Assembly (NCBI RefSeq): GCF_003966335.1
Contig: NZ_CP034549.1
Coordinates: 2,610,001 to 2,642,000 of the forward strand
Length of the DNA stretch: 32,000 bases
Direction: 5' to 3'
From: Nonlabens ponticola
GTDB taxonomy: Bacteria; Bacteroidota; Bacteroidia; Flavobacteriales; Flavobacteriaceae
Shown: positions 8,767 to 10,227 of the stretch, piece after piece
Numbering within the stretch: the stretch's first letter is position 1
Layout: every line of letters starts with the position of its first letter
Position numbers and translations under genes: made by a program
The notes under the pieces: model-generated
The model's input: the letters and a program-made list of their open reading frames with translations, nothing else
Told to the model about the DNA's origin: nothing
The model's database searches: none

Positions 8767-10227
8767 ATGGCAGTTGCCATCGTCATAGGTGCTGGAATCG
8801 GTGGTCTTGCAGCTGCATTGCGCCTCCAGCATAAAGGCTATCAAACTACGGTCATTGAGAAAAACAACTACGCTGGTGGTAAATTGCATGCCATTGAACA
8901 AGATGGATATAGATTTGATTTGGGCCCATCGCTGTTTACATTGCCGCATCTAGTTGATGAGTTACATGATCTATTTGAAGAATCTGTAGACTTTGATTAT
9001 GATTCACATCCTACGGCCTGTCATTATTTCTGGGAAGATGGCACTTGTTTTAAAGCACCATCGACCATTGATGGATTTGTAAAAGAAGCGAGTCAAACGT
9101 TTGACGAGCCTACTAGAAATCTTACATCCTATCTCGAGCGCAGCAAGAAAAAATACGAACTCACCAGCAAGCTGTTTTTAGAAAAATCATTGCACCGCTG
9201 GCAAACCTACTTAAGCAAGGACACGCTCAAAGCAATTCTCAATATTTCAAAACTAGGCATCAGCAATACGCTAGATAAGGATAACAGTACATTTGACTCG
9301 CCTAAATTGCAGCAGCTATTCAATAGATATGCTACCTACAATGGCTCATCGCCCTATCAGACACCAGGCATCATGAGCATGATTCCCTATCTAGAACTGG
9401 GTTTGGGTACTTACTATCCGCAAGGCGGCATGCATCGCATCTCACAATCATTATATGAGCTTGCAGTCAAGGTTGGTGTGGAGTTCCGCTTTCGCGAAAG
9501 CGTAACCTCTATCGATCAGTCTAACAATAAAATAGCTGGTGTCACTACAGATAAAAGTCAATACAAGGCAGATCTGGTCGTTTGCAACATGGACGTTTTT
9601 CCTACTTATGAAAAGCTGTTGCTTAAAGCCAAGAAACCTCAAAAAACACTGGACCAAGAACGCTCCAGTAGCGCGCTCATTTTCTATTGGGGTATCAATA
9701 GCAAACATAAGCAACTGGACTTGCACAACATATTGTTTAGTGAAGACTACCCTGCTGAATTTAATGCTATTTTCAAGGAAAAAACGCTATTTGATGATCC
9801 GACAGTTTACATCAATATCACTAGTAAATTAACACCTGGCGATGCACCAGATGGTAAAGAAAACTGGTTTGTGATGATCAATTCGCCTGGCGATTACGGT
9901 CAAGATTGGGAGGCGCTGGTGAAACAAGCGAGAAAAAATATTATTGCCAAGATCAATCGTACGCTCAATGTGGATATTGAGCCGCTCATCGAGACAGAAT
10001 ATATTCTAACACCGCAAGGCATTGAAGAAAATACCAGCAGTTATCGTGGCGCACTATACGGCGCTGCCAGCAATAATAAATTTGCAGCGTTCTTGAGACA
10101 TCCCAATTTCAACTCAAACATTAAAAACCTATATCATGTAGGTGGATCGGTGCATCCAGGTGGTGGCATACCACTCAGTATTTTAAGTGCCCGCATTGCG
10201 GCAGATTTAATACCAGATGCCCAATGA
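8767..10227 (+). CDS. crtD: Second CrtI-family desaturase, probable carotenoid 3',4'-desaturase
   Basis: FAD fold [15 protein letters not shown]...EKNNYAGGK and CrtI-family length. Its position between crtZ and cruF matches myxol/flexixanthin-type clusters. The start abuts the crtZ stop. Contains palindrome copy 3. Confidence 0.65.
9488..9501. repeat. Iterated palindrome copy 3 (inside crtD-like CDS, read as F-R-E-S)
   Basis: Exact 14-nt core. The extended 24-mer gttcCGCTTTCGCGAAAGCGtaac (9483..9506) is palindromic with one mismatch. Confidence 0.95.

Follow-up and report, generated by a model that had tools for sequence, protein, structure and literature searches.

A hyper-abundant palindromic word of Nonlabens and Dokdonia, kept letter-perfect in genes and spacers, as a possible tag of self-DNA

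Introduction

In a 32,000-nucleotide stretch of the Nonlabens ponticola chromosome (GCF_003966335.1, NZ_CP034549.1, positions 2,610,001 to 2,642,000; hereafter the window, numbered from its first letter), a palindrome lies within the carotenoid gene crtD at 9483-9506. We have found that it is one copy of a clade-specific, hyper-abundant and dyad-symmetric DNA word with the core GCTTTCGCGAAAGC, which is usually present as the 16-mer CGCTTTCGCGAAAGCG and is flanked by lineage-specific arms. On the grounds of its statistics in related genomes and of analogy with known systems, we tentatively propose that the word may serve as a DNA-level self tag, which a symmetric protein would recognise in double-stranded DNA as the DNA is taken up or undergoes recombinational or nucleolytic processing, and to which reading we would assign a probability of roughly 0.4. 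In the following, we describe the evidence concerning the abundance, conservation, spacing and origin of the word, and weigh the proposed role against the alternatives.

Results

The core 14-mer is present in seven exact copies in the window (Table 1), against 0.00 expected from dinucleotide-preserving shuffles, and no copy with one or two mismatches was found within the 32 kb, the G+C content of which is 40.5%. The coordinates and reading frames given for these copies by the initial annotation, which was made from the letters of the window, were borne out by exact matching and translation, and its statement that the core is free of stop codons in every frame is evident from the sequence itself. 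The abundance of the word was evaluated in 180 kb of unbiased sequence, consisting of the window and seven loci fetched via CrtD or transketolase, several of which are syntenic. As a result, 42 copies of the 14-mer were counted (about 0 expected), corresponding to one per 4.3 kb and, by extrapolation, to about 650-700 copies per 2.9-Mb genome. TCGCGA, TTCGCGAA, the 14-mer and the 16-mer, which are nested in this order, were found 59, 43, 42 and 31 times, respectively, and TTCGCGAA was, hence, practically absent outside the full word. From these nested counts, the constrained unit is 14-16 nt long and not the short inner site. With respect to the flanking positions, C was present at -1 in about 90% of the copies and G at +1 in about 80%, indicating that the usual unit is the 16-mer. 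The NruI-type hexamer TCGCGA was found outside the word 17 times against 16.8 expected in total, being neither avoided nor enriched, and restriction-site avoidance was ruled out on this basis. Statistics on the copies themselves were drawn from listed 8-kb blocks, described below, and eight loci fetched through protein look-ups, with a flavobacterial total of 749 kb, in which 169 exact, 13 one-mismatch and 15 two-mismatch copies were counted among the matches listed. In the 13 one-mismatch copies, the deviating letter was found anywhere from position 2 to position 14, most notably in excess at positions 5 and 10, which form a symmetric pair.

The taxonomic range of the word was determined by scanning one genome per prokaryotic species (185,579 species genomes, 596 Gb), in which at least 120 blocks of 8 kb were matched. 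Among the matches listed, the blocks with multiple copies were all from Nonlabens, Dokdonia or unnamed or loosely labelled metagenome-assembled genomes (MAGs) of Flavobacteriaceae, and 29 listed blocks from unrelated, mostly high-GC taxa had a single copy each, in agreement with the chance expectation in 596 Gb. The blocks are present at widely separated chromosomal positions, as exemplified by those of CP138998 at 0.88, 1.38, 2.15 and 2.82 Mb. At the syntenic loci of Gillisia and Galbibacter, no copy was detected even when three mismatches were allowed, nor was any alternative repeated long palindrome. Taken together, these data restrict the word to Nonlabens, Dokdonia and their close relatives, in which it recurs about once per 4 kb. 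In MAGs labelled 'uncultured Aquimarina' (L110, positions 157 and 1090; L071, position 7055), the word was also observed at an orthologous site in the same 409-amino acid open reading frame (ORF), and the two copies of L110, which are 933 nt apart, are among the closest pairs seen. It may be that the Aquimarina label is loose or that the range of the word extends beyond Nonlabens and Dokdonia.

The conservation of individual copies was evaluated by comparing the window with syntenic loci of N. agnitus, N. marinus (L122) and Nonlabens sp. SY33080. Six window sites fall within the syntenic range. Five of them, namely those in the transketolase gene, crtD, crtY, the PagL-like gene (where present) and the spacer between the aconitase and MoxR genes, were identical at 14 of 14 letters and located at the same position wherever the locus was present; the CrtD and transketolase subunit of the window are 76% and 86% identical, respectively, to their N. 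agnitus counterparts. The orthologous copies in the PagL gene are found at L121 15728 and L122 15715, and those in the aconitase/MoxR spacer at L121 19833, L122 19758 (a 30-nt perfect palindrome) and L123 17033, with the core in common and the arms different. The sixth site (3417) was matched in N. agnitus and N. marinus (L121 4772, L122 4655), and SY33080 has the word at this spacer, between the S4-domain and phosphoribosyltransferase genes, inside an extra TPMT gene. In a four-species codon alignment of 7.3 kb, in which only 14-21% of the third positions were invariant, the three coding word sites formed invariant runs of 14, 16 and 17 nt, which were three of the five longest runs, there being two other invariant runs of at least 14 nt. 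The 17-nt run CGCTTTCGCGAAAGCGT in crtD was invariant in the four species, and the word was the sole invariant run of at least 12 nt in crtY, 37% of the columns of which were invariant. These alignments show that copies, once formed, stay letter-perfect in place across species in which the synonymous sites are largely randomised.

The copies were, furthermore, found to be regularly spaced. The coefficient of variation was 0.43 for the 34 spacings in the unbiased loci and 0.46 for the 19 of them that are independent (from non-syntenic loci), compared with 0.9 for random placement. The minimum spacing was 1,569 nt, compared with a median of about 80-140 nt for the minimum under random placement (P < 0.001), and spacings shorter than 1 kb accounted for 3.8% in the 8-kb blocks, compared with 26.8% expected. 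Thus, the copies avoid close neighbours. Near the tkt operon, each lineage has one copy in a different place (window 776; L127 9836; L125 9828; L124 10856): it is inside tktN in the window clade, about 165 nt upstream in an N. dokdonensis-like genome, decayed at the same upstream place in N. ulvanivorans and 10 nt past the tktN stop codon in Dokdonia. Exact positions can, thus, turn over without loss of the local density. An extra copy of N. marinus (L122 7102) is located where 160 bp separate the gene of the MerR-type regulator from crtI. In the window, this spacer is only about 11 nt long and without a copy, which exemplifies a lineage-specific gain or loss. In the unbiased 20.8-kb locus of an uncultured Nonlabens (L126, CANLKV010000005), there were one exact, four one-mismatch and one two-mismatch copies (1275, 3629, 6568, 10684, 13339 and 17515), several of which are at sites where relatives have exact ones. 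Their mismatches were mostly at symmetric positions 5 and 10, and one copy was the symmetric double variant GCTTCCGCGGAAGC, which suggests a relaxed constraint or a shift in specificity in this lineage.

At the right end of the window, 8.6 kb (23425-32000) is without a copy or near-match, and is thereby longer than every one of the 34 spacings found elsewhere, the largest of which is 7.9 kb. This word-free end encodes an FAD-linked oxidase, a protein with a type IX secretion system (T9SS) sorting domain and glycoside hydrolases of families GH3 and GH16, and looks like a laminarin-type glycan-use cluster. No sign of foreign composition was seen in it, its G+C fraction being 0.403 compared with 0.406 for the rest of the window.

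The initial annotation had proposed that the word arose within genes by substitution and not by the insertion of extra residues, and this was supported at the three coding sites tested, one per reading frame, each being of the same length as in homologues without the word. CrtD homologues (120) were gap-free at the site, where about 55 Nonlabens-clade sequences read FRFRES and those of Maribacter, Winogradskyella and others read F[KN]FNE. The site in transketolase is a variable loop, which reads EAISLSRKRKP in the word-bearing Nonlabens subclade and variants of EAKSRTGKGKP, equal in length, in those without the word at this place, namely N. ulvanivorans, N. dokdonensis, Dokdonia and seven further genera. 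At the DNA level, the word-bearing species share ATC TCG CTT TCG CGA AAG at this site and the other species have unrelated codons. In lycopene cyclase, there was no indel compared with 90 distant representatives, most of which read F-Y-x-[FY]-A-K at the position of AFAKA, indicating that the word was placed here on a peptide that was already nearly compatible. Neither clean insertions nor target-site duplications, which the initial annotation had named as evidence that would refute this origin, were seen at the three sites. Variants differing by a single substitution were found at orthologous sites, such as TCG to ACG in L126 and TTT to TTC in crtD of N. ulvanivorans. As judged from these comparisons, new copies form in place by point substitution where AFAKA, FRES or LSRK is tolerated, or in spacers.

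Regarding the relationship with protein coding, the 169 exact flavobacterial copies (among the matches listed) were classified as confidently coding (115), noncoding (34) or ambiguous (20), using outside the window a longest-open-frame heuristic, which is reasonable at 35-40% G+C. About 70% of the copies are intragenic, and the noncoding share of 20-32% is to be compared with about 8% for noncoding DNA. The coding copies were distributed unevenly over the AFAKA (60), FRES (29) and LSRK (26) frames (chi-square p about 1e-4). The right arm GTAA, which would form an in-frame stop codon in the AFAKA frame, was present in 0 of the 60 AFAKA-frame copies and in 9 of the 55 copies in the other frames (Fisher p=0.0009), as well as in 5 of the 34 noncoding copies; in AFAKA-frame copies with GTA, the next base was C or T, resulting in TAC or TAT (Tyr). 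It had been noted for the window that both FRES-frame copies (9488 and 23411) have the GTAAC arm, read as S-V-T, and that the arm at 11117 is AAAA, which is correct, and the frame dependence suggested by these few copies extends to the 115 coding copies from many genomes. This is the outcome expected if in-frame stops are removed by purifying selection, which, acting on the host proteins, limits the placement of the word and the arm length that survives.

An enrichment of the three peptides was also found: in 60,766 codons, AFAKA, FRES and LSRK were observed 9, 11 and 13 times, respectively, compared with 0.07, 0.51 and 1.04 expected. The driver is the DNA word itself, as 30 of the 33 occurrences were encoded by the exact word. 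The word, in addition, makes use of rare codons, as TCG accounts for 7% of the Ser codons, CGA for 13% of the Arg codons and GCG for 16% of the Ala codons, and selection at the peptide level was ruled out on these grounds. As for the question of whether a generative process or selection pushes sequence toward the word, which had been left as alternatives in the initial annotation, the orthologous conservation, the regular spacing and the use of rare codons are three results showing that some force, and not mutational bias alone, acts on the word as DNA at the individual sites.

The arms were found to vary in a symmetric manner. In noncoding copies, the second flanking position was complementary in 25 of 34 compared with 13.3 expected (p<0.0005), and the fourth position showed a similar trend. 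The outer arms differ by lineage, being TAC..GTA both in Dokdonia (12 of its 15 noncoding copies) and in the window genome, and TTC..GAA or TCC..GGA in the majority of Nonlabens, and the arms in the aconitase/MoxR spacer are ATTAC/GTAAT in the window compared with TTTTTTC/GAAAAAA in N. marinus. These dialects are confined to the outer arms, with the core being invariant. Both half-sites change together within a lineage, which is consistent with a symmetric dimeric reader that would co-evolve with its site.

Copies of the word were also found on viral contigs of IMG/VR (Table 1). Although most of the matches listed had a single copy, several low-GC (36-43%) contigs had 2-3 copies, 3-6 kb apart and with the host-like C..G flanks. 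In a predicted provirus (L180, an uncultivated virus genome, UViG) from an isolate genome, the copy is in the gene of the head maturation protease, and other viral copies are in those of a prohead protease or major head protein (AFAKA), a portal protein (FRES), and an HNH endonuclease and an ATPase (LSRK). Because the chance frequency of the word in low-GC DNA was estimated from base composition to be about 1e-9 per site, these copies are not considered to be accidental, and the contigs probably derive from phages of the Nonlabens/Dokdonia clade. When the 30-nt consensus was compared by BLAST with cultured phage genomes, only chance or partial matches, such as those to Lactococcus phages, were obtained in a search in which matches shorter than 18 nt are below the E-value limit. 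A group of related viral contigs from isolate genomes (L129, L135, L141, L156, L161, L187, L198, L203, L211 and L219) has one 14-mer in the context agaaactaGCTTTCGCGAAAGCaacacaag, without the C..G flanks, which is probably a single chance occurrence inherited in one phage family and unrelated to the flavobacterial word.

Discussion

If the word is a tag of self-DNA, a clade-specific homodimeric protein would read it on double-stranded DNA. A dimeric reader of the duplex is suggested by the symmetry through the central CGCG, the 14 constrained positions and the outer half-sites that change together by lineage. The tag would be needed every few kb and would act in DNA uptake or in the processing of incoming or broken DNA, in a mode like those of the DNA uptake sequence (DUS) and uptake signal sequence (USS), Chi and, according to a recent proposal, the cyanobacterial highly iterated palindrome HIP1. 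Phages would carry the word in structural genes as word-bearing DNA would fare better in these hosts. It may even be, although this further step is to be taken as doubtful, that the word represents a self-DNA tagging system of a previously unrecognised kind in Bacteroidota, based on a 16-bp word that is read by a dimer and required every few kb. In such a system, the word would be needed for the acceptance, protection or recombination of DNA, co-evolution with the reader would result in the arm dialects, and phages would copy the word into their own head, portal and nuclease genes. If true, this would mean that operator-like recognition is combined with the principle behind uptake sequences and Chi, with hundreds of fixed five-residue motifs being imposed on the proteome.

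Among the known systems, Chi is like the word in being taxon-specific, in recurring at about one per 4-5 kb and in being mostly intragenic, and the role proposed here, that of a self-DNA mark recurring along the chromosome, is comparable. However, Chi is 5-8 nt long, asymmetric, read on single-stranded DNA and co-oriented with replication, whereas a palindrome cannot be oriented, and it is read by RecBCD or AddAB, to neither of which anything here ties the word.

The word behaves like HIP1 and like DUS and USS, and is a member of neither group. HIP1 (GCGATCGC) of cyanobacteria is also a hyper-abundant perfect palindrome present in coding sequence, in all three frames, and in noncoding sequence, spreads by nucleotide substitution and not by transposition, is non-randomly distributed and has lineage-specific variants. 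Its sites are conserved between genomes beyond codon preference (PMC5861425), as are those of the word, and it is reported to raise transformation efficiency, possibly via a role in uptake or a Chi-like role (bioRxiv 10.1101/2024.09.10.611283), having also been proposed as an uptake sequence (bioRxiv 10.64898/2026.06.24.733823). The word is different in its unit (14-16 nt compared with 8 nt), in its range (two genera of Bacteroidota compared with a phylum-wide presence in Cyanobacteria) and in its density, as HIP1 can be present more than once per gene, compared with about 1 per 4 kb for the word. Copies of the word repel one another at the short range of 1-8 kb, and HIP1 is periodic at 10-90 kb. 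Furthermore, HIPs are linked to cognate orphan methyltransferases of the inner sequence, whereas none is known for the word, and one-mismatch forms of the word are rare and without outer bias, unlike the deviants of HIP1, which are biased to the first and last positions (PMC4390886).

DUS in Neisseriaceae and USS in Pasteurellaceae are like the word in being clade-restricted and present in hundreds to thousands of exact copies. They show a frame bias, an enrichment of tripeptides and placement at poorly conserved residues (PMC2817400), as the word does, and the DUS dialects of lineages (PMC3630211) are comparable to its arms. Uptake sequences are reported to be evenly spaced (Karlin et al., as cited in PMC1939737), and genes without homologues in related genomes are also without them (Findlay and Redfield, PMC2817400). 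However, DUS and USS are 9-12 nt long and asymmetric, whereas the word is a perfect palindrome of 14-16 nt, and uptake bias and competence have been demonstrated for the organisms that carry them. The word is, unlike uptake sequences, carried by phage structural genes, and it is much sharper than DUS and USS, with very few near-matches.

Several points weigh against the role as a self-DNA tag. The function is deduced from the statistics of the sequence and by analogy. The lengths of uptake sequences and Chi are in the range of 5-12 nt, and none of them is palindromic, and the unit of 14-16 nt together with the 13:1 ratio of exact to one-mismatch copies is much sharper than is usual for USS and DUS. 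A chromosome-architecture role would predict the regular spacing and the conservation equally well, and transformation drive would not obviously load the word onto phages unless they were long-resident prophages. The density and spacing were, moreover, determined from about 180 kb of unbiased sequence, which is partly syntenic and includes 19 independent spacings, and the coding status outside the window was assigned by the longest-ORF heuristic. We know of no documentation of natural competence for Nonlabens or Dokdonia; natural competence with a preference for own DNA has been described for Riemerella columbina, classed as Flavobacteriaceae there (PMC7965970), and Riemerella species are the sole members so classed that we know to be documented as competent. 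With respect to earlier descriptions, none of the 14-mer or the inner 12-mer was found in the searchable literature, beyond which one is possible; the inner 10-mer turns up in published papers, none of them evidently on this element, and the word goes unmentioned in the papers on the Nonlabens dokdonensis and Dokdonia donghaensis genomes.

The foremost of the competing explanations, which we nevertheless consider rather improbable, is that the word is a chromosome-architecture site unrelated to uptake or recombination. A clade-specific nucleoid-associated, ParB/Noc-like or condensin-loading protein would then have the word as its operator, and would need such an anchoring site once every few kb for folding or segregating the chromosome or for tethering it to the membrane. 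Sites such as parS, the Noc-binding site (NBS), matS and the SlmA-binding site (SBS) are 13-16 bp dyad-symmetric duplex sites for dimeric proteins of the ParB, Noc, MatP and SlmA kind and are often conserved in coding sequence, and the word has a comparable form, with perfect central symmetry and the full 16-mer in 31 of 42 copies. The parS and NBS sequences also share with it a TTTC...GAAA half-site flavour, although the gap between TTTC and GAAA is 2 nt in the word and 4 nt in these sites. The sets of parS, NBS, matS and SBS sites, however, number from a few to about 100, typically tens, and are regionally confined and somewhat degenerate, whereas an extrapolated 600-700 sites, nearly all of them exact, would be spread over the genome in the present case, and both the density of about 1 per 4.3 kb and the wide separation of the hits speak against such a set. 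The regular spacing, the conserved positions in genes and spacers and the location of blocks far apart on complete or near-complete chromosomes (e.g., CP138998) would all be accounted for, and Xu et al. made a similar suggestion for HIP1 (PMC5861425). It would be unusual, however, for such a basic system to be limited to two genera and missing in syntenic relatives, and the copies in phage structural genes would not be predicted. Less probable still is a neutral by-product, as in Elhai's model of HIP, which ties HIPs to methyltransferases (PMC4390886): sequence-biased repair or methylation-coupled mismatch correction would turn near-matches into a functionless word. The origin by substitution would be in line with this, as would the presence in the core of CGCG and TCGCGA, which are plausible methylase targets, the occurrence of the word on any resident DNA, including prophage-like DNA, and the decayed copies of L126, which look as if a maintaining activity had weakened. 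However, replenishment predicts positional turnover and not 14/14 identity across species, as argued in PMC5861425, the one-mismatch variants do not have the outer-position bias seen for HIP1 (PMC4390886), and the mutual repulsion of copies would not be predicted. The specificity, in addition, extends over 14-16 nt, since TCGCGA outside the word is at the expected frequency and TTCGCGAA is essentially word-bound. Such a length far exceeds, to our knowledge, that of any known methylase site or very-short-patch (VSP) repair site.

Neither transcript hairpins nor mobile elements are likely to explain the word. A hairpin in RNA or single-stranded DNA, acting as a terminator, an mRNA 3'-end stabiliser, an RNase site or a single-stranded DNA hairpin, would be compatible with the covarying arms, with the enrichment of noncoding copies, which are often just past stop codons, and with predicted energies of -8.7 kcal/mol for the 24-mer at 17666-17689 and -14.2 kcal/mol for the 30-mer. 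We regard it as very improbable, because the 14 core positions are invariant including the would-be loop CGCG, which is self-complementary, a property that suits a duplex dyad site and is needless for a hairpin, and because about 70% of the copies are within genes, the arms vary by lineage and not by copy, and no Rfam family was found at any palindrome in the scan of the window. No T-tract is present, and a consensus terminator scan of 1-20000 gave no terminator-like call at the word sites; with most copies being intragenic, an intrinsic terminator was ruled out. The least probable of all is a miniature mobile element, in which case the word would represent insertions, some of them in frame, of a palindrome like repetitive extragenic palindromic (REP) sequences and REPINs, miniature inverted-repeat transposable elements (MITEs) or Rickettsia palindromic elements (RPEs). 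These are also abundant, genome-specific palindromic repeats, the word having hundreds of copies, with REPINs being found at orthologous positions and RPEs in frame, and RPEs show that in-frame insertions into genes can persist. However, they are insertions of 20-150 nt, REPs being extragenic and linked to the RAYT transposase and RPEs adding residues, whereas the word is merely 14-16 nt and made by substitution: the three coding sites are of the same length as their word-free orthologues and have no target-site duplications, the intermediates and decay forms differ by single substitutions, and the positions are orthologous across species. Accordingly, our order of preference is the self tag, the architecture site, the neutral by-product, the hairpin and the mobile element.

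Hyper-abundant words such as USS and DUS, Chi and HIP1 represent rare genome-wide contests between a DNA signal and protein coding. The word described here would be such a case in Bacteroidota, in which the long and sharp unit exposes the conflict in the form of specific peptides, rare codons and frame-dependent truncation of the arms. For finding the reader, natural contrasts are available in the word-free sister clades, the arm dialects and at least one lineage with decaying copies, and whether palindromic self-tags represent a general solution reached by convergence could be learned by comparing the word with HIP1. Marine Flavobacteriia are hard to manipulate genetically, and, if the word promotes the uptake, survival or recombination of incoming DNA, its addition to vectors could help. 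The presence of two or more copies on a viral contig would also be a strong marker for assigning phages to Nonlabens or Dokdonia hosts.

Features of the window

Table 1. Copies of the word in the window with their host genes or spacers, other features of the window, and viral contigs with the word. Core start is the first position of the 14-mer.
Position	Core start	Feature	Location	Peptide
776..789	776	bare 14-mer core, without self-complementary arms	in transketolase N-terminal subunit gene (93-938, +)	L-S-R-K
3413..3430	3417	TTAC + core (left arm only)	intergenic, between S4-domain gene (3021-3401) and phosphoribosyltransferase gene (3486-3974)	
9483..9506	9488	GTTCC-core-GTAAC	in crtD (8767-10227, +)	F-R-F-R-E-S-V-T
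11117..11130	11117	core 14-mer; right arm AAAA, not GTAA	in lycopene cyclase gene crtY (10823-11968, +)	A-F-A-K-A
14447..14470	14452	24-mer with one mismatched pair	near 5' end of PagL-like outer-membrane protein gene	L-S-R-K
17666..17689	17671	perfect 24-nt palindrome ATTACGCTTTCGCGAAAGCGTAAT, ATTAC-core-GTAAT	intergenic, between MoxR-type ATPase gene (17738-18691, -) and aconitase gene (15200-17467, -)	
23411..23429	23411	core + right arm GTAAC	in 158-184 aa ORF (23056/23134-23610, +)	S-F-R-E-S-V-T
4598-4670		tRNA gene	+ strand; with the next, sole Rfam matches in window	
4720-4801		tRNA gene	+ strand	
5107-6003		MerR/B12-binding protein		
6015-7481		crtI		
7478-8317		crtB		
8320-8766		unassigned 148-aa ORF	between crtB and crtD	
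10224-10847		Caroten_synth-family gene	between crtD and crtY	
4210		word	viral contig L180	
191, 6705, 11185		word	viral contig L216	
2606		word	viral contig L150	
4971		word	viral contig L172	
		word	viral contig L241	
		word	viral contig L132	

The longest copy in the window is the perfect 24-mer in the aconitase/MoxR spacer, and in crtD the perfect palindrome is 16 nt long (9487-9502) and lies within a 24-mer, one pair of which is mismatched. The intergenic copy at 3413..3430 begins 16 nt past the stop codon of the S4-domain gene, upstream of the phosphoribosyltransferase gene. In the PagL-like protein, whose probable start is at 14435, the LSRK peptide falls in the positively charged region ahead of the hydrophobic core of the signal peptide. 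The ORF with the copy at 23411 is probably coding, its sole Pfam match being a sub-threshold one to Polyketide_cyc2/SRPBCC (E=0.004). The copies in crtD and crtY are located in a carotenoid gene cluster (5107-11968) with a light or B12-type regulator, which is found in the same order in three other Nonlabens species.

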